NCBI GenBank assembly: GCA_944389475.1
Contig: CALXMM010000003.1
Location: forward strand, 64,847 to 128,846
Reading direction: 5' to 3'
DNA: 64,000 nucleotides
From: an uncultured Clostridia bacterium
Lineage (GTDB): Bacteria > Bacillota > Clostridia > TANB77 > CAG-508
Shown: piece by piece, positions 29,501-55,355 of the stretch
How the letters are laid out: each line of letters starts with the position of its first letter
Position numbering within the stretch: position 1 is the stretch's first letter
The notes under the pieces: generated by a model
What the model saw: the letters and a program-made list of their open reading frames with translations, nothing else
Told to the model about the DNA's origin: nothing
Databases searched by the model: none
Program-made: the position numbers and the translations under genes

Positions 29501-32500
29501 TATAATCTCCTGCCTCCAAATTAAATTTTGCTTGTCCATTAGAATCTGTTATATATTCACCAATAATTGTTTGTGGTGCATCCTTTGAGGCAATTGTAAA
29601 TTTAGCTCCTTCTATTGATGAATTTGTCTCTTCATCATATTTATTTATTAAAACTTGTCTAGAAACCTTCTTATAATAATATGTTACAACAACTCCATTT
29701 CCAGAATAAACTCCAGTTGCATTAGAAGGTGTATCTACCAACTCATAATCATCACTTAATTTATTATTTTCTATTGCACTTGTTGAATATTCCTCATCCT
29801 TTTTACCACTATATGTTTCATCTTTTGCAGTATCTCCATTCTTTAAAGGTACCGGTGTTGTTGTTCCATCTATATAATGATGTACTGTTAAAGGTATTTT
29901 CTTTTCTTGATAATAATATGTAACCTCTGTTATTCCTGGTTCAAAGGTTCCTGTTGCATTAGCAGGTATTACATATTCTCCATCCTCATCTTTTTCTAAT
30001 TCATATTCATTCAAATCCAATTTTGGACTTGTAGTATATTTTTCTCCATTCTTTCCTTCTAGTAATTCATCTTCTGCTACTTTTGTAGTTGAATATTGTC
30101 CATCTTCAGTTTTTAGATAATGATGTACTAAAACTTGTGATTTGTGAGTATTCTCAATTGTAAACTCATGACTTCCATCCTCTGTAAAGCTAATTTCCAA
30201 TGGTGTTGTATTTGGCTCATATCCTTCCGGTGCTTTTGTTTCTATTATTTCGTAATTTCCATAATGTACTTGTGCTATAGCTTGTCCAGAGCTATTTGTT
30301 GTTGCTTTAGCATAATAATTACTATCTATTTCTTTAATTATAAATGAAGCTCCCGGTAATTTAGCACCTGTCTTGCTATCTATTTTATTTATTATTAATT
30401 TATTTGTTTTTAATGCAAATGTTACAACAACAAATTTATCTTCTGTAACATTTGTAAATTGTGGCATTGTATATGTTCCATCTTCATTTGCTGTAAATGG
30501 CAATTCTTCGCCATTTACTGTAATATTAATTATTTCATAACCTTCCTCCGGTGTTATTATAATTGGTTTTGTGCTATTTTCTCCATATCTAATTGTTTCA
30601 TATGTATTCATTCCTTCTCCAGAAATAGAACCACCTTTTTTATCATCCATTGTTCTTGTAGCTGTTGTTATCTTCAAATCTTTTATTTCATTTTCAACAA
30701 CTAATTCTTGAGTTTCTGGAACACCAACTTGGTTAATAATATCAAGTATCATTCCATCAGAATCCCCATTATTCTCTAATGTATGATTATCAATTTGTAT
30801 AGTACTACTTGAGAAATATCCTCCAGCAATATCTCTTCCATCATATGTTTCTATTACTGTCTCTACATAATCATTACTACTTCCACCAATATTTTTAACC
30901 CATTCTATAATACCATTGTTAGTATACTTTATTAGAAGTCCATCATTACCTAATGAACCATTGTTGGTTAATATCTCACTTCCAAGTTGGATTGTACTAC
31001 TTGCATAATATCCACCTACGATATAACCACCATCAACAGACTCAGCAACTGAACGAATCTCATCATTATCACTACCACCTATATTATTGGTCCATTCTAC
31101 TTCGCCTGCATTATTATATTTTACAATTAAGCCATCATAACTTCCACTTATACTTGAATTTGATAATGTTTTATTATCTACTTGTACTGTACTACTCTTA
31201 AAGTATCCTCCTATAAGGACTCCGCCATCACTGGTTTCTATTACAGAATTAATATAATCATCTCTAGTTCCACCAATGCTCTTTGCCCATTCTACTTCGC
31301 CTGTATTATCGTATTTTATTACTAAACCATCTGTTTCTCCCTTATTTGATAATAATTCATTATCAATTTGAAGTGTACTACTTGCAAAATATCCTCCTAC
31401 GATTATTCCGCCATCATTTGTTACAAAAACAGATTGGATATAATCATAATCATTTCCACCAATATTTCTTGCCCATTCTACTTTTCCTTCACTAGTATAT
31501 TTTATTAAAAGGCCATCATATGGGTTAATTGAAACTGTACTATTATTTGTTAATTCTAGCTCATCTACTTTAATTGTACTACTTGCGAAATATCCACCGG
31601 CAATGCAGCCTCCATCACTTGTTGCTGAAACAGATTGGATATAATCATAACCACTTCCACCAACATTTTTAGCCCATTCCACTTTACCTTCGCTGTTGTA
31701 TTTAATTACTATTCCATCATTATTTCCACTATTTGCTAACACGATATTTCCTATACTTATCATTCCTTGGAAATATCCACCGGCAATACAGCCACCATCA
31801 CTTGTTGCTGTTACAGATACAATTTCATCATTGCTACTTCCACCAATATTATTTGCCCACTCTACTTCGCCTTTACTATTATATTTTATTACTAAACCAT
31901 CATTATTACCGTTATTTATTAAAGAAACATTTCCTACATCTATATTACCCTTAAAATAACCTCCGGCTAAGTATCCACCATCAATTGTTTTAGCTAGTGA
32001 AGTAATTTGTTCTGCCTTACTTCCTCCAACAACTTTTGATTTTAAAACTATTGGATTAGGTAATTCTTTATTTTCAAATTTTATTACTAAACCATCAATA
32101 CCATAACTTCCATTATTCGTTAATGTTCTGTTACCTACTTGAATTGTAGTGCTATTAAAATATCCTCCGGCAATATAACCTCTTCCATCACTCGTTGCTG
32201 ATACAGATTCTATGTAATCATTATTATTTCCACCTACATTTTCTGCCCATTGTGCTTCTCCATTAGCATTGTATTTTATTATGATTCCATCATAAGAATA
32301 ACTACCATTATTTTGAACAGTTTCATTTTCCAATTGTATTGTACTACTTTGGAAATAACCTCCTACAACAAAACCTTCATCAGCTGTAGCATAAATTGAT
32401 TCTATATAATCATATGCTGTTCCACCAATATTTTTAGCCCATTCTACTTCGCCATTAGCATTAAATTTAATTACTAATCCATCTATGCTACCATTATTTG

Positions 32501-35500
32501 ATACCATTTTTGTGCCTATATTAATTGTATTAGTTGTAAAATATCCTCCTGTTATAAATCCTCCATCACTTGCTTTTGTAACAGAAACAACACTATCTTT
32601 TTGTTCTATATTTTTTGTCCATTCAACTTCTCCGGATGCATTATATTTCATAAGAATACTTTCATCCTTAGAAAATCCTGCTACAATATAACTTCCATCT
32701 TCTACTTCTACTATAGAATTAACTCCATCTTGAGAATCAGCATTTCCAAATGAATCAAGCCAGTCTATTTCACCTTTTGCATTAAATTTAACTATAAAAG
32801 CATCCTCATATCCACTTGCTGCCTCACTATCAGAATTTGTTAATGTCCTATCTCCTATTTTAATTGAACTACTTGCAAAATATCCTCCTACAAGTACTCC
32901 GCCATCAGTAGTTGGGGCAATACTTTTAACTCCATCATTATAATTTCCTTCTACTTTCTTTACCCATTCCAAATCTCCTGATGAATTATATTTTATTATT
33001 ACTCCTTCTTTTAATCCATTACTCGTTAATTTTTCATTTTCTATTTGGATTGTATCACTTTGGAAATCTCCTCCTGCAACGAAGCCACCATCACTTGTTT
33101 CGGCAACTGATGTCATTTCATCTAGACCAGTTCCACCAATTACCTTTGTCCACTCTACTTCACCTTCTGCATCATATTTTATTATTATACCATCATAGTT
33201 ACCCTTATTTGTAAGTGTTTCATTTCCAATTTGAATTGTACTACTTGTAAAATATCCACATGCTAAATGTCCACCATCACTTGTTGCAGCTACTGAGCTA
33301 ATATAATCAGTTGAATCTCCTCCAACATTCTCTGCCCAAGTTGAGATCATTCCTTCTGGAACTTCTACAGATGTACCTATACCAAAATAATATACCTTAT
33401 TTTTTGTATCGTATTTGTCAGGTGCCTCTACTTCTACAGCCTTGTACAAACCTTCTGTTAAATCAACAACCAATTCGCCCTTTTCATCTGTAGAAACAGT
33501 ATAATATTCTCTTCCATTAATTAATTCTCTATCTCCAAGAATTTCACCCTTACTATTTAAAGCTGGCTTATCTGTTCCATCATCTATGCTATATATTGAA
33601 AATTTAACATTTGGTATTAATTCTCCTGTTTCCTTATCCTTCTTTATTAATTTAAAAGAAGGACTATCCTCTATTGTAAGTTTTACTGTATTTCCATCAA
33701 CAGTATAATTTTCTTCTTTACCTGATGTATTAATAAATTGCAATACACCATCTACATTTTGAACTTTAAATGTTATATCTTTTATATTTACATATCCTTG
33801 TGGTGCCAATACTTCCTTTAATGTATAAGTTGCACTTTCACCTTTTCCTTCTATATATTGGTACAAATTATTTATTGTAACTGTACCTGTGCTATCTGTC
33901 TCAAATTTACCTATTTCTTCTGTTCCTTTATACAATTTAAATTTTGCTCCTGAAAGATATGTTACTTCTGGAATTTCCTTTGTTTCTCCATCATTTTCCA
34001 ACTCTTCTTGAGCCTCTTCTTTGTCTTCTGTTAATCTTGATTCTATAGTTTTCTTTACTTTAATAATTTGCAAACTATATGTTGGTATCTTTTCATCTTC
34101 TAAATCCAATGTAACAGTTGGTATATTATTTTCTTCTGTAACTGTTTGATTCTTAACTGTTCCATTAGTAATTTGAACAGCGTAACTTCCATTGCTATTT
34201 ACTATTTTAAAAGTTATCGGATTAGATAAATAATATCCCTCTGCTTTTGTCTCTTGTAAAGTATATTCATAATCAACATATAATCCATTTATAGAAGCTT
34301 CTCCACTTGGGTTTGTAGTTAATATTCTACCGTTTTCAGGTAATTTATATCCTGTTAATCTATATTTAACATTTTGTAATGCCTTTTCTGTTCCTTGTTC
34401 TGTTTTATGTATTTTTAAACTTGCTTTAACTCCATCTTCTACTTTTACAATTACTTTATAATCCTGACCTTCTTGTTTTACAACTTGAATATCTTCTCTT
34501 GTTTTTCCTTGTGTCTTATCTACACTTAAATTTCCTTCGCCATCCATATGACCAGTAAATTTAATAATATCACTACTTAATTCATAATCACTTGGAACTT
34601 TTATTTCTTGTAATGAATATGATTTTTCTGCATATAAATCATTTATCGTTAATACACCTTGAGTATCTGTAACAGCCGTTTTGCTCTCACCTGTTTCATC
34701 ATCTGTAATACTATATGTTACCCCAGGTATAACTTTATCCATTCCAGCTTGATATTTTGTTAATTCTAAATTATATTTCTCTGCTATTCTAAAACCTAAT
34801 TTATCAGGTTCAGTTTGAGTTTTATATTTTCCTTGGTCAGTATCTATACTAAAATATACTCCGTGATGACTATAAGATACTTTATTAAGTTCAATTCCTT
34901 CTGGTATTTTTACTGTATAATTAAACACATACTCTGTCTCTGTTGGCATTACATATTCGCCTAAATCTATTAAATATGTTTTTATATTATCCCAATTTGT
35001 TACTTCTTCTGCAGTTTTCCATCCATTTTGTTCATTAGTTAAATCTCTATCCGGATTTTCATTTTCAGAATAATACAATGTTGCATATTGTTGTAAGTCT
35101 TCTGGAACTGTTATACCAGTATCTTTCATCCTTGTTGTGAATTCAGAATTCAAATTTTCTCCACTTATTGCATATGTGTTTCCTTCAAAAGGTATTTTAC
35201 CTAAAATTTGTATATCACTTATTGTATTTTCAGAATTGTTACGTATTTGAACACCTATTGTTACTTCTTTTTCTTCTTCTGGAGATGTTACCCCATACAC
35301 TGGTTTTACATCCGCAACTTGTGGTGATACTATTTGACTTCCTTTATCATCATAATTACTTCCTATTTGGTTTGTTAGTAAACTATTTGATGAAACAAAA
35401 CTCATATTTATAGTATTATAATTTACTTTTTCTTCTGTGTTTAGGTTATCATTTACATCATAAATATCATTTGCAGAATAATAATAATCACTATCTACTC

Positions 35501-37673
35501 CATTTGCTGAATATAATTCTATTGTACTATCTTTAGCAGATATTCTTGAGTCCGGTGTTAAGCTTACATCAATAGTTATATTATATGATTGTGGTGTCTC
35601 ATCTGCATTTTGTGTGTTAATCTTTATTAATTTAATTCCATCACGCTCTACTAATTCATAACTTGTTATTCCAACATTTCCATTATCTATTTCCACATTA
35701 TTAATTTCTGCAGAAAGTATTTCTTCTGGTAATTTAACAATAAAACTACCATTTACCCATCCACCTTCATTATTTGCACTATCATAACTAGCACTTATTG
35801 TAATTTTTTCATTTTTAGTTGTTGATTGAATAGGAATTATGTTTTCACTTATTCCAACCTTTGCAATAGAAAATGGCTCTTCATATAATGCTGTTCCTTC
35901 TGAAGTTCCTAAATCTGTTCCATTCATGTATGCTACAAAAGATGATTCTATATTTTTAAAATTATCAAAATCTTCTCTTGTGTATGTAGTTGTAATATAC
36001 TCATCATCCAATACTTTTAAATTATATACATATATGGTACTATTTGCATTTGTATCGCTTGTTTCTACTCTTATATGTTTTACTGGGAATTCATATGTAT
36101 ATGGGTTTTCACTAGTATAATTAGACCAATTTTCCTTTGTAAATGTTGCTAATAAATCTCCGGTTTCATCATCATATACTTTAATCCAACCATCTTCTTT
36201 TAATAGATTATCTGCTCCTGAGAATGCTATTCCTATATTTGATGTAGCATTTTCCATACTCTCTTTACTTGAATCCACTTTAATAAAATTATCAGATATT
36301 TGTTCTTGTCCATCAGGTGTTTCTTTTAATACTAATCCAGTTGATTCGCCTTCTGCTCCTAAATTTACATTCCAAACAACTTGATATTTATCATCATTTT
36401 CATCTTCATTTGTTCCATTATATATTTTTAATGGCTTTTCTTTAGAAACTATAAACCTACCTTCTGGATTATATAAATATTTACCAACTATTGTTTCTAA
36501 AGTTGTTTCAACAGATACAGGCTGAATATATGTAGCAGTTAAAATTCCTGTTGCAGTATTAGAAGTATATGGGTTTGTAAACTCACTACTTGTATTGTTA
36601 TATCCTTCATAATACGTACTTACAGGTATTTTTAATACTATTTCCCCCATATTTTGATATGCCTCTAATGGATATACCACTTGTACAGTATATGAATTAT
36701 CTCTAGATATGCCACTTGTTACAGTTCCATCTTCTTCTACTTGAGCTTCTCTATATATCTCTAGGACTTTAGTTTCTGCATCATAGTAAGAATCTGCATT
36801 ACTTCCGGTATATGTAACACTTATTGGGTCAAATCCGTTTAATTGTGGTATTTCGGCTGTTACATGATTATCTTTTAAGATTAATTCTTTGTCTGTTTCC
36901 TGTGTATCTATACTAAAATCCAATGTTACTGTTTTATTATTTTCATCAATCCTATTCTCTAAAGAATAGGTACTTTGAGTTTGATTAATTATTTCTGCAT
37001 TTGCAGTTCCATACCAATCAACATTAAAATTAACAGTTTTTGTTATTGGAGTTTCTTGGTCATCTGCATTTACATATGTTCCTGTTAATGTAATACTGTC
37101 CAACTTGCTATAATTATTTACATTGTCACCTATTGCTGAATTTATACTCGCCGGATTAGAATAATCTCCACTTCTAACTAATCCTGTTATAACTTTTTGT
37201 GTTTCACTGTTCAAATCATTAAATTCAATAGTTCTAATATTATTTCCAATATAGTTATCTTTTAGTTGTTCATCTTGAGGAAGGGATGTTTGAAAATAGA
37301 AATTACCATCATTTATCGTAATTTTTGCATCTTTTAGATAACCTGCTGTATCAACACTAAGATTCATGTACAAGATATCTTCTTGTCCTATTTGTTTGCA
37401 AGTTCCTCTAATCTTTTCTTCATTTCCATCACCATCTAAATCACGCAAAAAGAAAGCATCGAATTTAACACATTCATTTGTATCATCAACTATTTCTTCA
37501 CCATCTTTTACTTGGTCATATTCTATTGATTTTGCTAGTTCTGAGTTTTTCTTTGCAATATTCACTCTTTTTACATTAACAATGGCAATTCCAATTACCA
37601 TTGCTAAAATTATTGCAACTATTCCTCCTATCAAAATTAGTTTTACTTTCATTCCATTGTGATTTTTTAACAT
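20562..37673 (-). CDS. Giant (5703 aa) multidomain cell-surface protein with a C-terminal sorting signal
   Basis: Unbroken 17.1-kb ORF in AT-rich DNA.
- N-terminal TM.
- Cna-B/SpaA-like domains (e.g. YNLELTKYQAG...TINDLY...YSLQEIKVPSDYEL).
- 14 SBBP-type blades (GG..DYI.SV..TSDGG...GGYF.S.TIQ.GN..L.N.G..DGLIIKY...GEVEW).
- 11 Cna_B repeats (VTKVWDDN.N..GKRP.SV).
- MucBP-like units (V.VHHY......YYY).
- DUF11-like modules (TYTVRIKNTGN...LPEG).
- C-terminal SVETGEF, a hydrophobic segment and a KRHKDKK tail. Confidence 0.9.
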   Translation of the reverse strand: MLKNHNGMKVKLILIGGIVAIILAMVIGIAIVNVKRVNIAKKNSELAKSIEYDQVKDGEEIVDDTNECVKFDAFFLRDLDGDGNEEKIRGTCKQIGQEDILYMNLSVDTAGYLKDAKITINDGNFYFQTSLPQDEQLKDNYIGNNIRTIEFNDLNSETQKVITGLVRSGDYSNPASINSAIGDNVNNYSKLDSITLTGTYVNADDQETPITKTVNFNVDWYGTANAEIINQTQSTYSLENRIDENNKTVTLDFSIDTQETDKELILKDNHVTAEIPQLNGFDPISVTYTGSNADSYYDAETKVLEIYREAQVEEDGTVTSGISRDNSYTVQVVYPLEAYQNMGEIVLKIPVSTYYEGYNNTSSEFTNPYTSNTATGILTATYIQPVSVETTLETIVGKYLYNPEGRFIVSKEKPLKIYNGTNEDENDDKYQVVWNVNLGAEGESTGLVLKETPDGQEQISDNFIKVDSSKESMENATSNIGIAFSGADNLLKEDGWIKVYDDETGDLLATFTKENWSNYTSENPYTYEFPVKHIRVETSDTNANSTIYVYNLKVLDDEYITTTYTREDFDNFKNIESSFVAYMNGTDLGTSEGTALYEEPFSIAKVGISENIIPIQSTTKNEKITISASYDSANNEGGWVNGSFIVKLPEEILSAEINNVEIDNGNVGITSYELVERDGIKLIKINTQNADETPQSYNITIDVSLTPDSRISAKDSTIELYSANGVDSDYYYSANDIYDVNDNLNTEEKVNYNTINMSFVSSNSLLTNQIGSNYDDKGSQIVSPQVADVKPVYGVTSPEEEKEVTIGVQIRNNSENTISDIQILGKIPFEGNTYAISGENLNSEFTTRMKDTGITVPEDLQQYATLYYSENENPDRDLTNEQNGWKTAEEVTNWDNIKTYLIDLGEYVMPTETEYVFNYTVKIPEGIELNKVSYSHHGVYFSIDTDQGKYKTQTEPDKLGFRIAEKYNLELTKYQAGMDKVIPGVTYSITDDETGESKTAVTDTQGVLTINDLYAEKSYSLQEIKVPSDYELSSDIIKFTGHMDGEGNLSVDKTQGKTREDIQVVKQEGQDYKVIVKVEDGVKASLKIHKTEQGTEKALQNVKYRLTGYKLPENGRILTTNPSGEASINGLYVDYEYTLQETKAEGYYLSNPITFKIVNSNGSYAVQITNGTVKNQTVTEENNIPTVTLDLEDEKIPTYSLQIIKVKKTIESRLTEDKEEAQEELENDGETKEIPEVTYLSGAKFKLYKGTEEIGKFETDSTGTVTINNLYQYIEGKGESATYTLKEVLAPQGYVNIKDITFKVQNVDGVLQFINTSGKEENYTVDGNTVKLTIEDSPSFKLIKKDKETGELIPNVKFSIYSIDDGTDKPALNSKGEILGDRELINGREYYTVSTDEKGELVVDLTEGLYKAVEVEAPDKYDTKNKVYYFGIGTSVEVPEGMISTWAENVGGDSTDYISSVAATSDGGHLACGYFTSSTIQIGNETLTNKGNYDGIIIKYDAEGEVEWTKVIGGTGLDEMTSVAETSDGGFVAGGDFQSDTIQIENEKLTSNGLKEGVIIKYNSSGDLEWVKKVEGNYNDGVKSIAPTTDGGVLVGGYFASSSIKIGDRTLTNSDSEAASGYEDAFIVKFNAKGEIDWLDSFGNADSQDGVNSIVEVEDGSYIVAGFSKDESILMKYNASGEVEWTKNIEQKDSVVSVTKASDGGFITGGYFTTNTINIGTKMVSNNGSIDGLVIKFNANGEVEWAKNIGGTAYDYIESIYATADEGFVVGGYFQSSTIQLENETVQNNGSYSYDGIIIKYNANGEAQWAENVGGNNNDYIESVSATSDGRGYIAGGYFNSTTIQVGNRTLTNNGSYGIDGLVIKFENKELPNPIVLKSKVVGGSKAEQITSLAKTIDGGYLAGGYFKGNIDVGNVSLINNGNNDGLVIKYNSKGEVEWANNIGGSSNDEIVSVTATSDGGCIAGGYFQGMISIGNIVLANSGNNDGIVIKYNSEGKVEWAKNVGGSGYDYIQSVSATSDGGCIAGGYFASSTIKVDELELTNNSTVSINPYDGLLIKYTSEGKVEWARNIGGNDYDYIQSVFVTNDGGIIVGGYFASSTLQIDNELLSNKGETDGLVIKYDNTGEVEWAKSIGGTRDDYINSVIETSDGGVLIGGYFKSSTVQVDNKTLSNSSISGSYDGLIVKYNNAGEVEWTNNIGGSDNDEIRSVAESVDGGYIVGGYYASSTIQLGSEILTNNGSLGNDGLLIKYTNNGIIEWVKNIGGSSNDYVETVIETYDGRDIAGGYFSSSTIQIDNHTLENNGDSDGMILDIINQVGVPETQELVVENEIKDLKITTATRTMDDKKGGSISGEGMNTYETIRYGENSTKPIIITPEEGYEIINITVNGEELPFTANEDGTYTMPQFTNVTEDKFVVVTFALKTNKLIINKIDSKTGAKLPGASFIIKEIDSNYYAKATTNSSGQAIAQVHYGNYEIIETKAPEGYEPNTTPLEISFTEDGSHEFTIENTHKSQVLVHHYLKTEDGQYSTTKVAEDELLEGKNGEKYTTSPKLDLNEYELEKDEDGEYVIPANATGTFEPGITEVTYYYQEKKIPLTVHHYIDGTTTPVPLKNGDTAKDETYSGKKDEEYSTSAIENNKLSDDYELVDTPSNATGVYSGNGVVVTYYYKKVSRQVLINKYDEETNSSIEGAKFTIASKDAPQTIIGEYITDSNGQAKFNLEAGDYIATEIEVPEGYKLPENNVSEFSVSRENDIVTLNISNARLKGTVITHYYIEDTNTNVPNNSNGVVEDVVQTGNVGEIYATKEADNVSENYELVSTEGETSGIIQKDTIEVTYYYRLKSASVLVHHYIDGTDINVPSKNGGVVEDELINGRVTDTYNTSESENVANNYEVVEENLPKNSNGTMTLEQIVVTYYYKLKEPTIEQSKIDKTSTLEKVTEKDQAVPYSITYSANVDTYIGEAEVIIVDTLPYAIDKEKSNLNDGNYDENTNTITWTESITGIDTFANGEKQINVTKNISLVYQNLDVTKASVTNKVTGTLNLKTPEKTNTVENTKDIPTEFLKDVKVTKVWNDNGNSAGKRPNSVTLVLTGNGQTYKQPISSINAVAENENNWEYTFIDLPEYDESGKEIDYQVSEERSLEDNNKFYVESYDQTSKTITNTFSVPDEKITVTAKKYWDDNGNSAGKRPETAILTLTGKGEGVDISKEQEITLSNRVAGDDNTWEYTFTELPKYDNNGDEVVYTINEKNIESIFYIKSDVNQETRTITNTFHVPGDKVDVVVTKVWDDNNNFAEKRPASATLQVKNGNQVVASEAVTIDDAVNGDQNKWSHTFNVPKYDENGDVITYTADEENLKNKFYTRENTVIDGNMESGYTITNKFVVPNERISIPVTKIWDDNNNFAGKRPSSVTMKLKGIGEGVDSSYEEELTTENVDSSNENIWRFTFTDLPNLDEKGNEINYVLSEKLDNIYYKPENSKVEQDTKTITNTFKVPTDKITIPVVKIWDDNNNIANKRPDDVVLVLTGNDGSNPHKATLSGHNADLNDGNKWLYTFTDLPKYNSVNGDEIIYTLSEEDLGNKFYTRANTVINQEEKTVTNKFEVPDERTQVTVNKVWNDNNNRAGKRLNSVTISISGNGKTEEVVLNSGYAVENQNIWEYTFTNLQKLDSMGDEIEYTIAEEESKEENSKFYTSSVSQLTKTVTNTFQVPDERISVPVTKVWDDNGNSAEKRPSSLTMVLRGTGEGVNTSYEQELTSQNADPSNNNHWTYTFSDLPKYDANGDEIEYLLGEKLENIYYTNLNSDIDQDTKTITNKFKVPNDKISIPVTIDWNDNGNIANKRPSSIDIVVTASDGSGPYRNSLTKDNVDDTDSNKWTYTFMELPKYNSVNGDEITYSVNEENVNSKFYITSVDQQTRTITNTFSVPDETVSVTAKKVWDDNENFAEKRPDSAILTVTGIGEGVNISKEEKVTEDDAINEDKNTWEYTFTNLPKYDDYGDEISYTINEKDIESIFYIKSNLNQETRTVTNKFQVPGDKANIVVTKVWDDNGDIAGKRPASVTLQVKNESGIVASEVVTEKNAVNGDKNRWQYTFSVPKYDEKGNIINYSADEENLNDKFYTAENKIISGDMNSGYTISNKFVVPDERISVPVAKVWDDNENSKGKRSSSVIMVLRGTGEGVNTSYKQELTSQNADPSNNNTWTYTFNNLPRLDNYGNDIIYTVDEEDLGNKFYKKGSIDQISKTVTNISVYGRVIVHHYIMDDNGITTTTKVPSIDGGEVQDDIIEGAQGEEYTTNPAGNIMQNYELVQERIPNNKTGEITKEDTEVIYYYRLKNPSGTNTIEKSGTDKITSANQEMNYTITYNANINDYIGNAEVTIIDTLPYALDTSKSNDLDGGTYNETDRTITWAENVSNLNSYNGKGTVNITKNIKVFYVGLDMNQEKITNNVKGHIKLLTPERISKEASNNFESTIYKPIISAEKFVDKTETSEKDKVTYTVRIKNTGNLGKTVTLADSLPEGMSFDSSTQIKVGNIGTSYTEENLKSGIQVDVPEFTTVDVVFAGIVDDLAEGEYSKALKNVASVDNKQTNEVITNVTKANISAKQESDPANGSKVRESDTITYRIKLKNDGTRDGTALVKDVIPTGTTFVDGSIKVGDIADSSKTALDLQNGINVAVGINFEVIVEFKVIVNTLVDGTILKNIVYINTNGQDEKIPEELQHTYVEPKDNPEISMTGTSAIENLDQEITYNISYFTQISDYEGKAKVVLVDKLPYALDETKSELDGGTYDALNKTITWEQEVQGMQLTETKEVSINKQIKVVYQGITQNTVSIENIVNAHIEYETPERIGDEVTAKCTTTTGFIVNIPVSKVWEDEDNKLGQRPTKVVFKLKGSDGSERTMELAKPGTKGTTTTQDSTNPNKWNDIFTNLPKYDVNNQEIKYTVTEINGDLSYYSATVDNTGRVVTNTNKYGKVTVHHYIMNLDGTKTTNKVIGTDGQEIQDEVIEGKEGEPYKAKPAENINEKYELVQDATVGNSEGILEKYNEEKPQEVTYYYRLKPAKVIIHYIEKDLDDNDGNNQVLANNEQIDGHVDDQYNTDTEHKKDKIEKDGKTYTLVSKSGNVQGNMTVADTNVTYYYLQNTRATVRYVERDSETHQIIKDLETPYTKEGLVGDEFVTNSKNFQGYKLVESPEKTKIKMTKEEQTLIYYYEKIKTKLLENHIDDITGKILYTEEHNVPVGDNYNISSKNFEGYDLVENKLPENNKGTIGEEAVTVNYYYIKKAVLEVNYIDRETGEPLAEQIVDDTKHEGDSYTTEQRSIEDYDLVDVSSNANGILAVETDEQGNITNNRTVVTYYYAKKSTGVEVHHIDILSGEELEPLTLQEGHIGDLYDIKPKEFLSYAVAETDKNGNNILPANAKGKMTKDKIVVNYYYYQPAKVIVHFVDKTTGKEIEETNSKTGELQNSQVILEGQKDDEYTTNPKEFEYYSLVESPKDSSGKMKVEITKDKDDKDIVNNTIELYYYYEPKPFNLGVEKEITGIIINGNRRSATNGKLERVEIYRKSTENTSVQIEYKIKVINTSKVEGRAIIEDKLPEGMSLAHNDGTWEENNGTLRKVIPEIKGGETKEYTVLLNWKGSGENMGNKVNEVSLIQTDNVPGFKDENDKDNTDEATAIISVETGEFPTGLLFVLAILVVLESVTLRYAVVLTKRHKDKK
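24965..28495 (-). repeat. Array of 11 tandem Cna_B-type repeats with higher-order segmental duplication
   Basis: Eleven (V/I)(T/A)K(V/I)W(D/N)DN.N...KR(P) units of about 95 aa. Unit types follow the order A-B-C-D-E / A-D-E / B-C-D. The segments at about 25.2-26.0 kb and 27.45-28.25 kb are about 80% identical at nucleotide level, as are those at 25.98-26.30 kb and 26.95-27.27 kb. Confidence 0.8.
30745..33345 (-). repeat. Two tandem seven-blade SBBP-type beta-propeller repeat sets (gene 1)
   Basis: 7 + 7 blades of about 60 aa, counted from the translation. The two sets are split by KFENKELPNPIVLKSKVVGG (about nt 32060). Confidence 0.75.
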
Positions 37674-37915
37674 CTATATTCCCCCAAGAAATAACTAATA
37701 TTTCCTTTTATATTTCATTTATTGTATCAAGTTTATTTCTTATATTAAATAGCTCTTTTTTCTAGTTTTCTTGGGCTGTTTTAGGTATATTTACGCAAGC
37801 TATTGGTGCACGCTTTAGGTTTTAATATTACATTTTTATGTTTTTTTCGATATAGTTTGTCAAATAAGAATATAAAGCTCTCTTTTATTGTATTTCCGTA
37901 AGGTTTTCGGTTTTT
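37674..37915 (-). promoter_or_regulatory. Conserved leader/promoter region of giant gene 1 with an RBS-sequestering helix
   Basis: Homologous to 55094-55355. The arms at 37767-37775 and 37683-37691 are perfectly complementary (CCCAAGAAA / TTTCTTGGG) and cover the SD. A conserved AAAAATGTAATATTAAA block may be an extended -10 element. Confidence 0.5.
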
Positions 37916-38022
37916 TACAATTTTGTACATTTATATTTTTGTGTAAAAAATAAGAGTACCTACAAAGTATTTCTACTCTATAGGTACTCAATTTTTCTTT
38001 TGTATATTTAGCATAATAAACA
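37888..38022. repeat. Direct repeat copy A (about 135 bp) flanking the ATPase/Rpn cassette
   Basis: Shares the identical 34-nt core AGTACCTACAAAGTATTTCTACTCTATAGGTACT (37955-37988) with 40970-41003, plus about 80%-similar flanks. Confidence 0.6.
37945..37988 (-). terminator. Terminator hairpin (copy A)
   Basis: AGTACCTA-18 nt loop-TAGGTACT, followed on the minus strand by CTTATTTTTT. It lies downstream of the ATPase gene and upstream of leader 1. Confidence 0.5.
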
Positions 38023-38111: not shown

Positions 38112-39419
38112 CTATAAACTCAATTTATCTAAACAAAAAACACTGTATAAAGGAATACACTTTATATCATTTTCAAATCCAAAATTCTTAGTTGATACTC
38201 TTATTGAATATTTAATATTATATAAACTTTTAAATACATTTAAACTTTTTGACCTTGTATGCGCACTTGATTTTACTTCTATTGGAATAATATTTCCTTC
38301 TTTATCTTGCACAACAAAGTCAACTTCTGCTTTTCCGTTTGATTCCCAATAATATGGTCTTAAACCTGCTTTAACCAAACTACTACATACATAGTTTTCT
38401 GCTAATGCTCCTTTAAAATCATTCAAATTATCATTATCTACAATTATAATATTGGTAGGTATACCAAATTTATTACACAATAACCCAACATCATTCATAT
38501 AAATCTTAAAACTCTCCGGCTCTATAAATGCAGAAAGCGGTAATTTACCTTCTCTTGTTTTAGTGCATTGTATAATAATTCCTGAAGCATTCAACCAATT
38601 AATAGCAGTCTCATATTCATATGCTCTCGCCCCTGATTTTATCAATTTGTATTGAAATTTTCTATTTTCTTTTGCTAATTGTGAAGAAATGCTATTATAT
38701 ACTGCCATTATTTTAGTCGTTTCTGTTGCTGTAGCATATTTTGCCATATCCGCTATATACGAATTATTAATATCCTTTAATATTGATGATACAAAATCCA
38801 TATCCTGTTTTTCTTTATATTCTAATATTGCCCTTGGCATTCCACCAATTGCTAAGTATAAACGATAATAGTTATTTGCTAAACCATGCAAAGAAAATTC
38901 TCTATCACTTTCAAAAGCATCCCTTATTAAATTTGCTAAATCTCTCCTATCCATTGCCCACAAAAACTCTTCAAAATCTAATGGGTATAATGTTAGCATT
39001 TTTACTTTGCCTACCGGGAATGAATATTTATTTCTATTTATTGCTATTCCTAACAAAGAACCCGCTGCTATTACATGATATTTGTAATTACTCTCTGCAA
39101 AATATTTTAAAGATGTTAATGCTCTTTCGCAGGTCTGAATTTCATCAAAGAAAATTAATGTGTCTTCTTCCATTATTGTTATTCCTAATCTTACACTTAA
39201 TTCTTTAATGATTCTGTCCACCTCTAAATCTTGTTCAAAGATTTTAGCAATCTCTCTGTTATCCTCAAAATTTATATATACAACATTTTTATAATTCTCT
39301 TTTCCAAAAGATAGAATTGTATATGTTTTTCCAACTTGTCTTGCTCCATAAATAATTAGTGGCATCTTTTCTTGATTATCTTTCCATTCAAGTAATATTT
39401 TTGACATTTTTCGTTCCAT
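38112..39419 (-). CDS. AAA_14 ATPase with a DUF4143 C-terminal domain
   Basis: Walker A YGARQVGKT and Walker B LIFFDEIQ, with a C-terminal ...GKAEVDFVV.....IPIEVKS (DUF4143-like) region. Start set at the MERKMSK ATG (39419), 8 nt after AGGAGG. Confidence 0.75.
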   Translation of the reverse strand: MERKMSKILLEWKDNQEKMPLIIYGARQVGKTYTILSFGKENYKNVVYINFEDNREIAKIFEQDLEVDRIIKELSVRLGITIMEEDTLIFFDEIQTCERALTSLKYFAESNYKYHVIAAGSLLGIAINRNKYSFPVGKVKMLTLYPLDFEEFLWAMDRRDLANLIRDAFESDREFSLHGLANNYYRLYLAIGGMPRAILEYKEKQDMDFVSSILKDINNSYIADMAKYATATETTKIMAVYNSISSQLAKENRKFQYKLIKSGARAYEYETAINWLNASGIIIQCTKTREGKLPLSAFIEPESFKIYMNDVGLLCNKFGIPTNIIIVDNDNLNDFKGALAENYVCSSLVKAGLRPYYWESNGKAEVDFVVQDKEGNIIPIEVKSSAHTRSKSLNVFKSLYNIKYSIRVSTKNFGFENDIKCIPLYSVFCLDKLSL

Positions 39420-39614
39420 TTTATGTGCCTCCTTTACATTTATTGTAACATGCATTTATTGATATGTCAATTTGAAGATGTTATTACTAAATAATTTAGT
39501 CTTGCTAACATTAATTTAAATGAAAAAGAAACATCTATTATTAAGTGTTTGCTTTAATTTTAAAACTTGCACTTTAATAGATGTTTCTAATTTCATTATG
39601 CTCATATTAATTTA

Positions 39615-40475
39615 TTATATTTCCTTAGTTAATTTTTCAATTTCTTCTTCGTTTAGTTCAGTTATTTTTAATATCACATCTTTAGGCATTTTTTCTTTTA
39701 GCATTTTCTTAGCTATCTCTATTTTTTCTTGTTTTCGTCCTTCTTTTTGACCTTCTTTTTGTCCTTGTTTTCGTCCAATTTTTTCGCCATCTTCTCTTGC
39801 TCCTTCCATATTCGTTACATAATCTTTTAATGCTTTTTCCCTTAAAAAAGCTTTTCTCCTTACTGCTTCATCTCCTGTTAGATATTCTAGTTCATCTGAT
39901 GCTTCTTTTACTTTTTTATTCTCTTCCATTGCCTTTTTTACCCCCTTTTCATCTTGACCATCTATGAATTTTAACCATTGCCATAATTTCTTGTTCTCTT
40001 TTTCACTCCCTTCCTTTTTAAATTTTGGTATTTGTATAAAATGCATTTCTAAATCATTTGTTAGTAATTTATTTTTATATTCTCTTCTTATCGTTGCTAC
40101 TTCATGATATGGTCCTTCTTTAAAGATATCAAAATTTAATATATTTATTGTTACTACTCTATTATTTTTCTTATAATTTCCTCCACTTTTTAGTCCATTA
40201 TAATATAATCCTGACCAATAGAATAATGACCTTTCTGTCATATTATATTGGTCTTGCATTTGCATTTCTATATCTATTGTTATTCCATTATCTATTACTG
40301 CTTCTATATCTAATATTCCTTCTTTATTATCTATTAAATCTCTTTCTAAATCTACTTCTGCTTTTATCTCTATTTGATGAATATTTATATTTAATATTCC
40401 ACTTAATAAATCTATTAGCATTCCTTTATTCTTATTGTTTCCAAAAACTTTTTTAAAAATAAAGTCATTTGTCAT
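39615..40475 (-). CDS. Rpn-family recombination-promoting nuclease / putative transposase (PD-(D/E)XK, TIGR01784-like)
   Basis: N-terminal TNDFIFKKVFG, the GILDIEAV...IDIEMQ core (D...ExQ variant of the PD-(D/E)XK motif) and ...VVTINILNF, followed by a K/E/Q-rich C-terminal helical tail. Confidence 0.75.
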   Translation of the reverse strand: MTNDFIFKKVFGNNKNKGMLIDLLSGILNINIHQIEIKAEVDLERDLIDNKEGILDIEAVIDNGITIDIEMQMQDQYNMTERSLFYWSGLYYNGLKSGGNYKKNNRVVTINILNFDIFKEGPYHEVATIRREYKNKLLTNDLEMHFIQIPKFKKEGSEKENKKLWQWLKFIDGQDEKGVKKAMEENKKVKEASDELEYLTGDEAVRRKAFLREKALKDYVTNMEGAREDGEKIGRKQGQKEGQKEGRKQEKIEIAKKMLKEKMPKDVILKITELNEEEIEKLTKEI

Positions 40476-41095: not shown

Positions 41096-44000
41096 TTATT
41101 TCTTGTTATTTTTCTTTTGTCTCTTTGTTAGAACTACTGCATATCTTAATGTTACACTTTCTAGTCCTACTAATGCTACTAAAGCTATTAATAATCCTAC
41201 TGGGAATTCACCAGTTTCTACACTTATTGATACTGTTGCATTATCCGTATTATCTTTATCATTGCTATCTTTGAATCCTGGTACGTTATCTGTTTCTGTT
41301 AATGCTACTTCATTAACCTTGTTACCCATATTATTTCCAGATGTCTTCCAGTTTAATAATACTGTGTATTCTTTAGTTTCTCCAGCTCCTATTTCTGGTA
41401 TTACCTTTCTAATAGTTGTTTCGCCGCTTTCTGCAGCATTTACGCTTGATACTTCCCATGTTCCATCATTATTTGCTAAAGTCATTCCTTCTGGTAATTT
41501 ATCTTCTACTATTGCCCTTCCGGAAATTTCTCCAGTGTTCATAACTTTTATCTTGTACTCTACTTGTACACTTGTGTTTTCTGTGCTCTTTCTATAGATA
41601 TCTACTTTTTCTAGTTTTCCATTTGTTGCATTTCTTCTTTCACCATTTACTATTATTGCAGAAATATCTTTTTCTACTCCAATATTAAATGGTTTTGGTT
41701 CGTAGTAATAGTAAACATCTTTTGTGTTGTTAACTATATCTTTTCCATTTTCATCCTTTGTGATTTCTACTTTCATCTTACCATTTGGTTCTTTTGGACT
41801 TTCTACTAATTTATAGTATTCAAAGTCTTTTGGTGTTGTTGTATAGTCATCATCTTTGTATCCTTCGATAATTACTTGTGATGATTGTAGTTCTCCTGTT
41901 TCTGGATTGTTTTCTTCTAGTTCTCTTCCTGTTGTTCTATCTACATAGTGTACTATTACTTTTGCTGGTTGATTATAATAGTAATTTACTACTATTTTAT
42001 CTTTTGTCATTGTTCCTTGAGCATTTGTTGGTAACATATTGTTTCCATCTTTATCTTCTGTTACTAATTCGTAACTTAAGAATTCTTTTGCACTTGTAGT
42101 ATATTCATCTCCAACATGTCCATTGTAAATTGTTGGTTCTGCCAACTCTTCTCCTGTTACTATGTCTATGTGGTGTTCTTCTACTACTGCTTTTCTTACA
42201 TAATAATATGTTACTACTGTCTTATTATTCGTTATATTACCATTTTCATCTGTTTCTACTGTTAGAGTTCCATCTTTGTTTGATGGTACTTCTACTAAGT
42301 CAAAGTCTTCGAATGTCTTTTGCTCTGTTGTGTATGGGTCACCTTCATGTTTTGTATCATCAACTATTTGGTCTGTTAAAGGTTCTCCTGTTTCTTTATC
42401 TATGTAGTTTACTTCTAATACTGCTTTCTTTATGTAATAGTAATTTACTGTTACAAGTTCTTCTCCCATTGTTCCACTTGCGTTGTTTGGAAGTTTTGTT
42501 GTTACTAAATCATATCCTACAAAGTTCTTGCTTGGTATGTTGTAACTATCTCCTACTTGAACTTCATGTTCTTCTGTATATAAGATTTTCCCTGTTTTGT
42601 CATCTATGTGGTTTTCTAGTAATCCAGTATATACTGGCTCATACCAATATATTAAGGTTTGTTCTTCTTTTGTCATGTTTATTGTTGTTGGATTTGGACT
42701 TTGTATTAATTTATATCCTGTGAATTCTTTTGAGTTTGTTACAAATTCATCTCCAACTAATCCTTCTTCTGTTCTTGGTGTCTCTAAATCTTTTACTATT
42801 TCTCCTGTCTCTGGATTTCCTTCCACATATCTAACTGTTGCTTTTGTGTTTTGTAGATAGTAATATGTTACATTTGTGTCTGCTACTGTCATTGTTCCTT
42901 GTGTGTTTCCACTATTAGAAACTAATGTGTATGTTTTACCATCTTTTGTTATTGTATCTTTCTTATGTTCTGTATCTGTGTTGTATTGGTCATCTACGTG
43001 TCCATCAATTTGCTCATTATCTGATAAAACTAGGTTATTGCCATCATTATCATCTGAGTCCTTTTCTAGGTAATGTATTATTACTTTTGCTGGTTTTAAT
43101 CTGTAATAATATATTACTTCTTGTGGTTTTTCTTCATCATATTTTTCTATTGTTCCATCTGGTTTCTCTGGTAATTTTTCTTGGACTAACTCATATTTTT
43201 CATTTACATTGTCTGCTGGCTCTGTCTCATATGGGTCTCCTTCTTTTCCTTCGATTATCTCATCTTGAACCTCGTTTCCTTCTTTGTCTGGGACTCTTGT
43301 TTCTGTTGTACTTCCATCTGGATTCATTACATAATGATGTACTGTTACTTTTCCGTATTTATTTGTGTTTGTAACAGTTTTATCTGTTACTACACTATCG
43401 TAATATTTTAAGTCTCCATCTGTCTTTTGTTCTTCTGTTAATGTATATACAATTTCTTGTTTATTAGCATCATATTTTGGTAAGTCTGTAAATATATCAT
43501 TCCATTTATTTGGATTTTCGCTATCTTGTGTTGTAGTTGTGTTTGCTGTTCCTGGTTTTGCTACATCCAATGTTCTTACACTTCCATCACTACCTGTTAA
43601 CTTAAATACTACTCTTGTTGGTCTTTGTCCTAGTTTGTTATCACTATCATCCCATATTTTGCTTACTGGTATATTTACTATAAATCCTGTTGTTGTTGGC
43701 CAGTTTGCTGTTACTTCTTCACTTGTTCTATCCGGTGTTTCATATTCTATATGAGCTTTTATATTATTTTTAATACTCAATGTGTCTTGGCTAATTCCTG
43801 TATATACAACTTTTATTTGTTTATTTATTGTTACTTCTCTACCTTCTGTCATTTGTATATTTTCTACTGGTTGTTCCCATGTTATTGTCTTGCTTGCTGC
43901 ATCATATGTTCCACCATCTAAGTCTTCTAATATATTTGTTTTTGTTGTATCTATTTCATATGGTAATTGATCTACTAATACAATCTTTGCATTTCCTTCA

Positions 44001-47000
44001 TAGTCTGTTATATGTGCTGTGTAATTTATGTTATATGTTATCTCATCATCTAGACTATCTGTTGTTGCTGTTCCTGTCTTAGATATACTTTGTTCTTCTT
44101 TTGGCTCTACATATGTGTGCTCTGGCTCTTCTGGAACTTTTTCATCTTCTGGATTTTCTCCTGGTTCATCACCTGGATTTCCTGGGTTATCAGTATCTTT
44201 ATTTATATATGCTGTATTCTTTATTGTTGTTCCATCTGCCAATTTATTTACTCTTACTTGGAACTCAACTACTTTTTCTTCATTTATTCCTAATGTTACA
44301 CTTATTCCATTTTCTAAATCTTCAGCTGTCTTTGTTAAATCTTGTAATTCTCCTATTCTTACTGAGTCTTCTACAAATGTTGTTCCTTCTGGCACTTTAT
44401 CTTTTACAAGTACTGTTCCAGCTCTTGTTCCATCATTTCTTACTCTTATTCTGTATGTTATTGTGTCTCCTTCTGTTACTTTTGTTCCACTTACTGGGTC
44501 TGATTCTTTATGTGCTGTAATATTTGGTTTCGTTACTGTTGTTGTTACTTCATTTGTTGGTTCATTATCCAATGTTGCTTTATTCTTTAATTCTTTACTA
44601 TATGTTCCTTCTGGTAATGTATTTACTATTCCCGCAAATACTACATCAACTGTACTATATTCTGGAACTTCTACTTGTATTCCATTCTTTAAATTTTGCT
44701 CTGTATATACTGTTCCTGTACTTCCAACTTTTATTTGTGTACTACTATCAAATGTTAGACCTTCTGGTAATGTATCTGCTAATGTTACTGTTTTAGCTAA
44801 GTTTCCATCATTCTTAATTCTTACTGTATATGTTACTTTCTCTCCTTCTTGTGCTTCTGTCTTATCAACTATTTTCTCTGCACTTATTATTGATTTATAT
44901 ATTGTGCTTTCAAAGTCATCATTTGTTTCTTCACTTGTTGTTTCTGGAGTAAGTAACTTAATACTTCCTCTTACATTGTTTGTTATCTTTTCTTGGTTCA
45001 TATCTAAACCAGTATAGAATACTTTAATGTTCTTAGTTATATTAACTGTTCCTTTGACATTATAACTATCTAAGTCTGATACGTTTTCTGTCCATGTAAT
45101 TGTATGCTTTGCTGGGTCATAGTTTCCGCCATCTAGGTCGTTGGCTTTGCTTGTATCTATTGCATATGGCAATGTATCTACGATTGTTACTTCTGCATTA
45201 CCTATATAGTCTGTTACATTTGCATTATATGTTATAGTGTAATTTACTTCTTGGTCAGGTGCTGTTATTCTCTCTGTACCAGTCTTTTCTATTGTGTTTG
45301 TTACTGTTGGTGTTTTTAGTTTGTAATAGTATGTTACTACTATTTGTTCCAATGTCATATTACCATTTGCATTTGCTGGATTTTCATTTACAACTTCATA
45401 GTTATTTGCTATCTCTGTTGATGGATTTGTTGTATATGGTGAATTTACTTGTCCATCTATTAATTCATCTTCTACTACTCCACCATTTTTATTTGGTACC
45501 TTGGTTTCTGTTGTTGTTCCATCTAGGTTCATAATATAGTGGTGTACTAATACATTTGTAGGTTTTAGTTTGTAATAGTAAATTACTTCTATTGTTCCAT
45601 TTTGTATCGTTCCACTTGTTTCTCCTACTGTTGAGACATACTCATAATTTTCGCTTACATTATCTGCTTGTTTTGTTGCATAGATATCTCCTACATCTCC
45701 TGTTTGTACTACATCTTCGACTACTCCACCATCTTTATTAGGTACTTTTGTTTCTGTTGTTGTTCCATCTGAATTCATAATATAGTGGTGAGTTATTACC
45801 GTTCCTTTAATTTTAGTATTTGTTATATCTAATGTTACTTGGTCTTGTCCTTTTGTTACACTAAACTCTGTCGTATTATTTTCTGGTATTTGGTAACCCT
45901 CTGGTACTTCTGTTTCTGTTGCAATATAGTCTCCTGATTCTAAATTAGTTGCTATTTGTCCGTTAGAATCTGTTGTGTAAGTTCCAATTATTGTTGTTGG
46001 AGTATCCTTATCTGCAATTGTAAATTTAACTCCTGCAAGTGGTGTTTTTCCATCTTCTGCAAATTTGTTTATTACAAGTGGTCTTACAACTTTTTTATAA
46101 TAATAGGTTACAACTACTTCTTCTCCACTATATGTTCCTTCTGCATTTGAAGGTGTTTCTACTAATTCGTAATCATCACTTAATTTGTCTTCCTCAATTG
46201 CATTTGTTATATATGGTTCATTTTCTTTTCCACTATCGATTACATCTTCTGCTACTCCACCATCTTTTAATGGTACTTTCTCTGTTGTTCCTTCTATATA
46301 ATGATGTACTGTTAGTGGTATATCCTTTGTTTCGTAATAGTAGATTACTTCTATTGTCTTACCAGATTCAAAATCTCCTGTTGCATTTTCTGGTAGTACA
46401 TAGTTTCCTTCTCCATCTTTTTCTAGTTCATATTCGCTTAAGTCTAATTTTGGATTTGTTGTATATTTTTCTCCATTCTTTCCTTCTACTAATTCATCTT
46501 CTGCTACTTTTGTTGTTGTATAGTTTCCTTCATTATCTTTTAAATAATGATGTACTATTACTTTTGCAAGTTTATTATTTTCTATTGTAAACTCATGATT
46601 TCCATCTGCTCTAAATTCTACTACAACTGGTTCACTATTTAACTCATATCCTTCTGGTGCTGTAACCTCTGTTATTTGGTATTTTCCAAATGGTATTTGT
46701 GTTATAGCTTGTCCTTCACTATTTGTAGTTACTTCTGTATGATATAGTTCTGAATCATTTAAAGTAACTTTTACACTATTTACAGTAAATTTATCATCTC
46801 CTGTTGATGTACTAGCATTTTTATAATATCCAAGATGTAAATAATACATTTGTCCACCTTGTAATACTGTTGTATAGTCTTGTGCATCTTGCTCTCCAGA
46901 TATATAGACAAATCTTCCTGTACTACTGCTATATGATGGTGCAGTTGTATTACTTGTTACTGTTGCATATCCATAATCAGAACTACTTTGACTTGATACA

Positions 47001-55093: not shown

Positions 55094-55355
55094 AATGAAA
55101 TCCCTCCAACAAAAAAGTCATTTTTCGCTATATTATCTGTTTTATTTTATCAACTTTATTTCTTATATTAAATAGCACTTTTTGCCATGTGTTGGAGGGT
55201 GTTCCGCGCCTATTTACGCAAGCTCCTAATGTGTGGTTTAAAGTTTAATATTACATTTTTGTGTATTTTTTGATACATTTTGACATAAGGGATTTGGAAA
55301 AATCCTTTTTTCTCTTTTTATATCTTCTATTTCTTCTTTCCGTAGTTTTTCTTAA
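55094..55355 (-). promoter_or_regulatory. Conserved leader/promoter region of giant gene 2 with an RBS-sequestering helix
   Basis: The arms at 55190-55199 and 55102-55111 are perfectly complementary (CCCTCCAACA / TGTTGGAGGG) and cover the SD GGAGG. Sequence blocks are shared with 37674-37915. Confidence 0.5.

Follow-up and report, generated by a model that had tools for sequence, protein, structure and literature searches.

Two giant paralogous genes lie on the minus strand of a 64,000-nucleotide stretch of DNA from an uncultured Clostridia bacterium (contig CALXMM010000003.1; the whole stretch is called the window here). The subject of this analysis is the possible pairing, in the leader of each gene, between the Shine-Dalgarno (SD) sequence and a segment further upstream. 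A Pfam scan found SpaA, Cna_B and MucBP repeats in the products of both genes, and the gene 1 product also has a transmembrane segment at its N-terminus; on these grounds both products are adhesin-like. The two proteins are 63% identical across their first 500 amino acids. The genes and the main features of their leaders are listed below.

20562..37673, minus strand: giant gene 1, encoding 5703 amino acids, with its ATG at 37671-37673
41096..55093, minus strand: giant gene 2, encoding 4665 amino acids, with its ATG at 55091-55093
37683-37691, minus strand: 3' arm of gene 1, TTTCTTGGG, overlapping the SD core GGGGG (37681-37685)
37767-37775, minus strand: 5' anti-SD arm of gene 1, CCCAAGAAA, 19 nucleotides upstream of the -35 element of a predicted promoter, P1
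55102-55111, minus strand: 3' arm of gene 2, TGTTGGAGGG, covering the SD GGAGG
55190-55199, minus strand: 5' anti-SD arm of gene 2, CCCTCCAACA
37725-37753 (gene 1) and 55148-55176 (gene 2), minus strand: conserved 'loop' block, GCTATTTAATATAAGAAATAAA(C/G)TTGATA
37788-37801 (gene 1) and 55211-55224 (gene 2), minus strand: motif A, AGCTTGCGTAAATA, a local variant of T(C/G)CGTAA
37821-37837 (gene 1) and 55244-55260 (gene 2), minus strand: motif C, AAAAATGTAATATTAAA, part of the AAATGTAA element

A first-pass annotation of the window had proposed that compensatory covariation supports a helix occluding the ribosome binding site (RBS) in these leaders. The observations on which it was built were reproduced: the SD context of gene 1 is perfectly complementary to an arm 75 nucleotides upstream, gene 2 has a different SD context with a different matching arm 78 nucleotides upstream, and the three conserved blocks lie where they had been placed and are exact in both leaders. 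Motif A lies 12 nucleotides (gene 1) and 11 nucleotides (gene 2) 5' of the arm. The arms had also been said to occupy the same aligned position, which is correct for the region but not for the register; the two helices are offset by two columns and therefore share a region without showing column-by-column covariation.

Each arm word is unique in the window on both strands, where 0.63 copies of the 9-mer and 0.03 of the 10-mer would be expected. RNAfold placed the arm helix in the minimum free energy and centroid structures of both leaders, with ordinary overall folding (z = 0.06 for gene 1 and -1.12 for gene 2). Compared with shuffles and with foreign leaders, the gene 1 helix, which has 9 base pairs, six of them A-U, barely beats chance on its own (p ~0.065-0.08), and that of gene 2 does so clearly (p ~0.013-0.015). 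A second stretch in the gene 1 leader, AAGAAATAA (37733-37741, minus strand), lies in the P1 spacer within the conserved block and is perfectly complementary to TTATTTCTT (37686-37694, minus strand), just 5' of the G-run. As TTATTTCTT overlaps the 3' arm, that arm has two alternative 5' partners. Gene 2 has no counterpart of this second pairing.

The conserved block between the arms is best read as a promoter

The conserved block had been interpreted as a feature of the RNA helix, lying in its loop. According to a promoter scan, by contrast, the block holds a predicted extended -10 promoter of the sigma-70 type in both leaders:

37721..37748, minus strand: predicted P1 of gene 1, with -35 TTAATA at 37748-37743, a 16-nucleotide spacer, TG at 37729-37728 and -10 TACAAT at 37726-37721
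55144..55171, minus strand: predicted P1 of gene 2, TTAATA-16-TAAAAT, with TG before the -10

Transcription from P1 is predicted to start at ~37714 for gene 1 and ~55137 for gene 2, giving 5' untranslated regions (UTRs) of ~41 and ~44 nucleotides, respectively. The first-pass annotation had named a transcription start downstream of 37767 as evidence against its helix, and the predicted gene 1 start falls there. Since the predicted starts of both genes lie downstream of their 5' arms, transcripts from P1 would lack the arm. The scan found no conserved sigma-70-type promoter further upstream in either window leader.

Homologous leaders were collected by a protein search and a profile-guided genome scan, which together yielded 80 loci (denoted by L numbers), and 76 leaders with start codons were extracted. 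An exact 22-mer of the conserved block had no match in a scan of GTDB genomes. All 80 loci come from metagenome-assembled genomes of uncultured gut Clostridia of ~1.5-1.7 Mb, with many paralogs per genome. We took the best promoter score within -130 to -12 of each leader and used dinucleotide shuffles as the control. A best score of at least 17, the threshold used, was reached by 59% of leaders compared with 7% of shuffles (Mann-Whitney p = 1e-18). The -10 element ends at a median position of -48, and near-consensus proximal promoters recur at about -60 to -90 across the homologous leaders. Hexamers and spacing resembling those of P1 are kept despite sequence change, as in TTGACA-16-TAAAAT, TTTACT-17-TATAAT and TTTACA-17-TATAAT. 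In L083, which carries an ortholog of gene 2, the TG of the extended -10 has been lost and the -35 is improved (TTTAAT to TTTACT), a compensation expected of a promoter and not of an RNA loop. Judged by these scores, the conserved block is best read as the genes' own promoter rather than as an RNA element.

SD windows are complementary to their own upstream regions in part of the family

Family-wide pairing was assessed with RNAduplex by comparing the duplex formed between each SD window (-20 to +3) and its own upstream region with those formed with upstream regions of unrelated family members. SD windows paired better with their own upstream regions (mean z -0.78, with 18% of leaders at rank-p <= 0.05; Kolmogorov-Smirnov p = 3e-5). 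Four 23-nucleotide windows inside the coding region (+30 to +105) served as a further control. In the run that included them, the SD window gave a mean z of -0.75, with 17% of leaders at rank-p <= 0.05 and 15 of the 76 at z < -2. The coding windows gave mean z values near 0, with 3-4% at rank-p <= 0.05 and 2-3 of 76 below -2. A control using unrelated genes from the same loci had only 12 usable genes and was replaced by the foreign-leader and coding-window controls. The absence of enrichment from the coding windows indicates that the complementarity is real and specific to the SD window, and it is found in roughly a quarter of the family. The sense duplex was stronger than the antisense duplex in 61 of 76 leaders; this comparison is not used as evidence, because a G-rich SD facing a T-rich upstream region favours G.U pairs by composition.

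The strongest helices relative to the foreign-leader null are those of L044 (z = -5.5), gene 2 (-4.3), L047 (-3.9) and L035 (-3.3). The paired arms differ in sequence from locus to locus: CCTTCAAAAA/TTTTTGGAGG in L001, CCCAAAAC/GTTTTGGG in L091 (an 8-base-pair arm at the homologous place), TCCCCCT/AGGGGGA in L035, TTGACTCTTTATA/TATAAGGAGTCAA in L047, ACAGTTTCT/GGAGACTGT in both L039 and L005, and TTATCTCTATAAA/TTTATGGAGGTAA in L079. An altered SD flank is matched by a different upstream arm in L055 and L061.

The position of the 5' arm relative to P1 was examined in the 26 leaders with a duplex of -12.5 kcal/mol or stronger. The arm lay upstream of the -35 of the best promoter in 10 leaders and overlapped the promoter in 15, inside the -35 hexamer or the spacer. 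It was thus upstream of or overlapping P1 in 25 of the 26, a proportion that is partly built in, because the search for arms was restricted to positions upstream of -35/-40 and P1 UTRs are mostly short. The exception, L035, has its arm upstream of its proximal promoter. The arm also lies outside the P1 transcript in the long-UTR leaders L005, L073 and L010/L108, despite room for it within the UTR. The mean predicted probability that the SD is unpaired was 0.69 in the P1 transcript and 0.40 in a transcript starting at -200 (p = 1e-10). For gene 1 the predicted accessibility falls from 0.86 in the P1 transcript to about 0.3 in the long transcript, and for gene 2 from 0.84 to 0.00.

Arm sequence and register vary among relatives

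Several changes between close relatives preserve pairing. The arm CCCTCTAACA of L083 keeps a pair as G.U, with a duplex of -18.3 kcal/mol, and L105 has gained a second G.U relative to L001; C>T changes that retain G.U pairing were found in L083, L105 and L066. In a MAFFT alignment, however, conservation within the leader is lowest in the arm segment, located between motif A and the P1 block, and the helix registers shift by 1-4 columns between lineages. RNAalifold predicted 0 consensus pairs on seven leaders classed as W-type. With the register of gene 2 imposed on seven sequences, 77% of cells were paired compared with 71% in shuffles, and sliding the register by 1-2 columns still gave 72-73%. 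Double compensatory changes were limited to two pairs in the fixed register, a number matched by 320 of 500 shuffles. Fixed-register covariation is weak because the registers shift. Compensatory covariation as claimed earlier is therefore weak in the strict sense, with no excess of column-wise double changes and no consensus structure. What the leaders preserve is an anti-SD stretch of one kind or another close to the promoter.

The first-pass annotation could match the leader to no known riboswitch class, and database models bear this out. Rfam 15 at the gathering threshold returned one tRNA only for the whole window, with no match to models including those for c-di-GMP, c-di-AMP and thermometers; at E <= 10 the leader gave only a chance snoRNA match (E = 9.2). 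No cyclic-dinucleotide riboswitch was detected anywhere in the 64-kb window. A conserved aptamer segment beside an expression platform is absent from the leaders, the candidate segment being the least conserved one and variable within a species.

A different structure occurs in a human-gut clade, where a perfect 12-base-pair hairpin, AAAAACTTGATA-12 nucleotides-TATCAAGTTTTT, is followed directly by the SD at about -50 to -15. It was seen in L021, L052, L085, L087, L089-L093, L096, L100, L101 and L104, and L089 retains it through a U.G pair. Its 3' half abuts the SD. Its 5' half covers the predicted extended -10 of P1, so that only RNA initiated upstream could form the hairpin, which resembles a weak terminator flanked by A/U.

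A conserved, strand-specific module lies upstream of P1

The most enriched word upstream of the gene family is a T(C/G)CGTAA-type motif, usually TTCCGTAA(G), of which motif A is an instance. It occurs 65 times in 53 of the 76 leaders, with TCCGTAA ~50-fold over expectation, and is strongly strand-specific, often forming paired copies 88-104 nucleotides apart. In the leaders L001-L080 it is found at about -110 to -150 and -200 to -330. The window has five copies in 64 kb, including those at 37791-37797 (minus), 55214-55220 (minus) and, in reverse orientation, 37895-37901 (plus). The motif is able to pair with a GGAGG-type SD through G.U pairs.

The second component is AAATGTAA, an AATGTAA-type element present in 49 of 76 leaders in the forward orientation compared with 3 in reverse. 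It repeats with a period of ~22 nucleotides, at 37821-37862 (minus) and 55244-55285 (minus) in the window and at about -150 to -210 in most of the L loci (for example AATGTAACAAAAAAGAC / AAATGTAAAAAAAGAC in L051), and lies ~26 or ~36-37 nucleotides from the CGTAA motif. By analogy, and speculatively, this architecture resembles the direct-repeat sites of response regulators. Words resembling Spo0A boxes, TGTCGAA and TGACGAA, recur within the module (in L003, L021, L047, L066 and L039), and gene 1 has TATCGAA in the region 37846-37852 (minus).

Motif A may serve as a regulator site or belong to an upstream promoter. Promoters recognized by SigI have AAA at an extended -35 followed, after 13-14 nucleotides, by CGWA at the -10 (PMC4711584). 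A SigI- or extracytoplasmic function (ECF)-type promoter at the CGTAA motif was considered and rejected: CGTA is present, but alignment of the 65 occurrences showed no fixed element 13-14 nucleotides away, and the A-runs found ~17-18 nucleotides from the motif have low information content. Motif A as an RNA hairpin was also set aside, as hairpins are predicted in gene 2 and L001 but absent in L083 and L105. Independently of motif A, four leaders (L069, L079, L064 and L071) carry a strong hairpin directly upstream of the -35, at about -100 to -70 (for example CGCTGAAGTGCT-AGAAATTACC-AGCACTTCAGCG). Its loop, AGAAATTACC, is conserved, its stems vary by locus, and the -35 region after it is rich in U; the hairpin may act as an attenuator or terminator or be a protein site.

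Genomic surroundings

In 60 of 70 loci the next gene upstream has the same orientation, and this neighbour is frequently a further giant adhesin gene. With only 10 divergent loci among the 70, too few for a useful comparison, helix strength showed no correlation with the orientation of the upstream gene (p = 0.7). A canonical terminator was found within 330 nucleotides in only 9 of 76 leaders, and mostly belonged to the upstream gene itself; given this number, a general two-layer insulation by terminator plus anti-SD arm was dropped. The other annotated features of the window are as follows.

38112..39455, minus strand: DUF4143/AAA_14 ATPase gene, co-directional with and upstream of gene 1, between the two giant genes
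39615..40475, minus strand: PD-(D/E)XK 'transposase' family gene, likewise located between genes 1 and 2
37954..37989, minus strand: intrinsic-terminator-like hairpin (16-base-pair stem and T run) ending the DUF4143/AAA gene
2942..3868, minus strand: gene for a response-regulator-GGDEF protein
12335..14338, minus strand: gene for a GdpP-type c-di-AMP phosphodiesterase
8912..9664, plus strand: sortase gene
14524..15915: YpeB gene (sporulation/germination)
15974..16471: SleB-like hydrolase gene (sporulation/germination)
1042..1863: YabG gene (sporulation/germination)

The same DUF4143 gene is found upstream of the orthologous giant genes in L083 and L110/L111. Orthologous giant genes are split into consecutive open reading frame (ORF) calls in L081, L082, L083 and L105-L111. 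The split in L081, into 303 and 5362 amino acids, is caused by a 1-nucleotide deletion at +874 of gene 1, outside any homopolymer. Such split ORFs could be real pseudogenes, phase-off variants or assembly errors.

Discussion

The predicted promoter between the arms and the complementarity of the SD windows suggest a model of promoter-selective translation, in which the SD would be masked in upstream-initiated transcripts and free in P1 transcripts. We favour this model tentatively, at a probability somewhat short of even. Each giant adhesin gene would be transcribed mainly from its own sigma-A-type P1, and the resulting transcript, with a 5' UTR of ~40-45 nucleotides and a free SD, would be translated. 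The C-rich 5' arm, situated just upstream of the predicted P1 start or, in other lineages, inside the P1 -35 or spacer, would for that reason be present only in RNAs that start further upstream, either by read-through from a co-directional upstream gene or from a candidate promoter in the conserved upstream module. In these longer RNAs the arm would fold back onto the SD and block ribosome binding, which would also leave the 14-17 kb message, now untranslated, vulnerable to decay and to termination by Rho. The net effect would be to insulate each paralog from upstream transcription. That P1 is active, that upstream-initiated transcripts exist and that the pairing lowers translation are steps that we infer.

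A number of observations weigh against promoter-selective translation, in addition to the constraint on arm position given above. The pairing effect is confined to about 20-30% of the family, leaving ~70% of leaders without significant pairing. The C-rich arms are generic anti-SD sequences, and the SD of gene 1 pairs equally well with the arm of gene 2 (-13.8 kcal/mol) and with its own (-13.9 kcal/mol). Own leaders differed modestly overall from chimeras with foreign upstream regions (SD accessibility 0.40 vs 0.49, p = 0.04), although the comparison was asymmetric, with 21 leaders much less accessible and 4 more accessible. Terminator-like structures are already present upstream of both giant genes in the window. 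Finally, the arm is degraded or missing in some relatives. In L081, an ortholog of gene 1 from the same species as the window (99% protein identity), the 3' arm is unchanged and CCCAAGAAA is replaced by CC-AAAAAA, which weakens the duplex from -13.9 to -8.4 kcal/mol. Of the nine upstream differences of L081, five are clustered at -112 to -96. The clade of L021, L052, L085, L089, L092 and L104 keeps motif A and P1 with an arm that is absent or only 5-7 base pairs long, and long transcripts of the L021/L052 clade are predicted to have an open SD (0.85-0.89). The first-pass annotation had expected homologous leaders to maintain the pairing; a subset of the 76 does so with different sequences, and L081 and the L021/L052 clade do not.

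A second possibility is that the pairing has no dedicated function. Promoter-adjacent C-rich tracts would then simply complement G-rich SDs in a genome of 70% A+T, and the helices in the window would be part inherited and part chance, an explanation that we regard as rather unlikely but worth taking seriously. It would account for the marginal helix of gene 1, for arms that are interchangeable between paralogs and registers that pair almost equally when slid, and for an arm segment that is less conserved than any other part of the leader and gathers changes within a species, as well as for the many leaders without significant pairing. It is less easily reconciled with an enrichment seen in the SD window and in none of the four coding control windows, or with helices far beyond the null (gene 2, L044, L047 and L035). 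It also has to contend with the gene 2 10-mer, for which 128 kb of sequence should give only 0.03 occurrences, and with L055 and L061, where a changed SD flank is met by a different arm.

It is also possible, at a probability that we judge to be low, that the leaders are long and regulated. Transcription would then start upstream of the arm, at the AATGTAA / T(C/G)CGTAA module, with P1 absent or secondary, and the SD helix would be opened by temperature, a protein, a small RNA (sRNA) or processing. The strong conservation and strand specificity of the module fit such a leader, as do the G.U-preserving changes and the adjoining or overlapping of the arm with the T(C/G)CGTAA motif in L002, L008, L073 and L076. 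In gene 1, moreover, AAGAAATAA could compete for TTATTTCTT, the kind of alternative pairing that a switch would need. Against it stand the very strong support for P1 as a promoter in the family-wide enrichment, the lack of a fixed -35-like element at promoter distance from T(C/G)CGTAA and of a conserved sigma-70-type upstream promoter, and the failure to find an Rfam match, a consensus structure or an excess of double changes. The would-be aptamer segment, from motif A to the arm, is the most variable one, and the arm is lost in L081 and the L021 clade. A ligand-sensing riboswitch in particular is unlikely, given the promoter reading of the block, the missing Rfam match and consensus structure, the variability of the arm and its loss in L081 and L021/L052. 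Of the earlier idea of an RNA helix that gates translation, the SD-occluding pairing in both paralogs is retained and the ligand riboswitch is not; a thermosensor, or a switch opened by a protein or sRNA, may still operate on a transcript initiated upstream.

A related proposal, which we consider improbable, is that the upstream module (AATGTAA repeats ~22 nucleotides apart with one or two T(C/G)CGTAA motifs) drives a second, long-leader transcript with an SD masked by a lineage-specific anti-SD arm; translation of this pre-made message would then depend on a trans-acting factor, temperature or processing. If true, this would be an undescribed form of control by two promoters with two translatabilities in a large paralogous adhesin family, and could underlie the selective expression of one paralog at a time.

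That the arms are the inverted repeats of an inverton, in which a recombinase flips the P1 segment to turn the adhesin on or off, is hardly credible: the repeats formally flank the promoter of a surface-protein family with many paralogs, but they are only 9-10 base pairs long and 75-78 base pairs apart, very short for synapsis, and they differ between paralogs of one genome and so offer no shared recombinase site; moreover, their mismatches are of the T:G wobble type, no flipped P1 block was seen in ~25 W-type leader instances (from the window, GTDB genomes, ENA contigs and 12 metagenome contigs, and including six independent assemblies of one leader), and Pfam scans found no serine or tyrosine recombinase among the window ORFs.

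Promoter-selective translation would have close counterparts in insertion sequences. In IS10, as Davis, Simons and Kleckner are said to have described in 1985 (Cell 43:379), the RBS of the transposase is masked specifically in read-through transcripts, and the same is reportedly true of the RBS in IS50, in work attributed to Krebs/Schulz and Reznikoff. In both, as is predicted for the leaders analysed here, the 5' arm of the RBS helix precedes the point at which the gene's own transcript begins, the arms enclose the promoter, and the helix can be folded only by externally initiated transcripts; in the leaders here the 3' arm overlaps the SD (GGGGG in gene 1, GGAGG in gene 2). They differ in that the host is a chromosomal family of giant adhesin genes and not a transposable element, and in that arm sequences and registers vary between lineages.

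A further comparison is offered by the left end of IS200, which combines a terminator against impinging transcription with a cis-acting stem-loop that sequesters a near-consensus SD, AAGGGGGU; disruption of this stem-loop raises translation ~50-fold (PMC4513863). The combination of protection from impinging transcription with SD sequestration would be the common element. The IS200 stem-loop, however, lies inside its own 5' UTR and represses its own mRNA, whereas the 5' arm here is predicted to be outside the main transcript, and a terminator is directly upstream in only a few of the leaders.

Translational riboswitches and RNA thermometers (ROSE, fourU and prfA-type) likewise have an upstream segment that pairs with the SD, which would block the 30S subunit. 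In contrast to them, the giant-gene leaders have no conserved aptamer or sensor, no Rfam match and no conserved register; the loop is 75-78 nucleotides long and promoter-like, and the helix has 3-6 G-C pairs, unlike the weak, mismatch-rich pairing of thermometers. Invertible promoters (fimS, the Bacteroides PS loci, C. difficile cwpV and flagellar switches) share with these leaders the inverted repeats that flank a promoter of multi-paralog surface genes, but the repeats here are far shorter, far closer together and not common to the paralogs, and neither a flipped orientation nor a recombinase gene was found.

For further work on these leaders, the practical warning is that the conserved 'loop' is predicted to be a promoter and not an RNA element, and a search for the real regulator of the adhesins would do better to start from the strongly conserved upstream motifs. 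The genes concerned encode sortase-type surface proteins of 4,600-5,700 residues, and each genome has many such paralogs, which often lie in tandem. A functional fold-back would keep these costly adhesin genes independent of their upstream neighbours, and would extend a control logic of insertion sequences to ordinary chromosomal genes.

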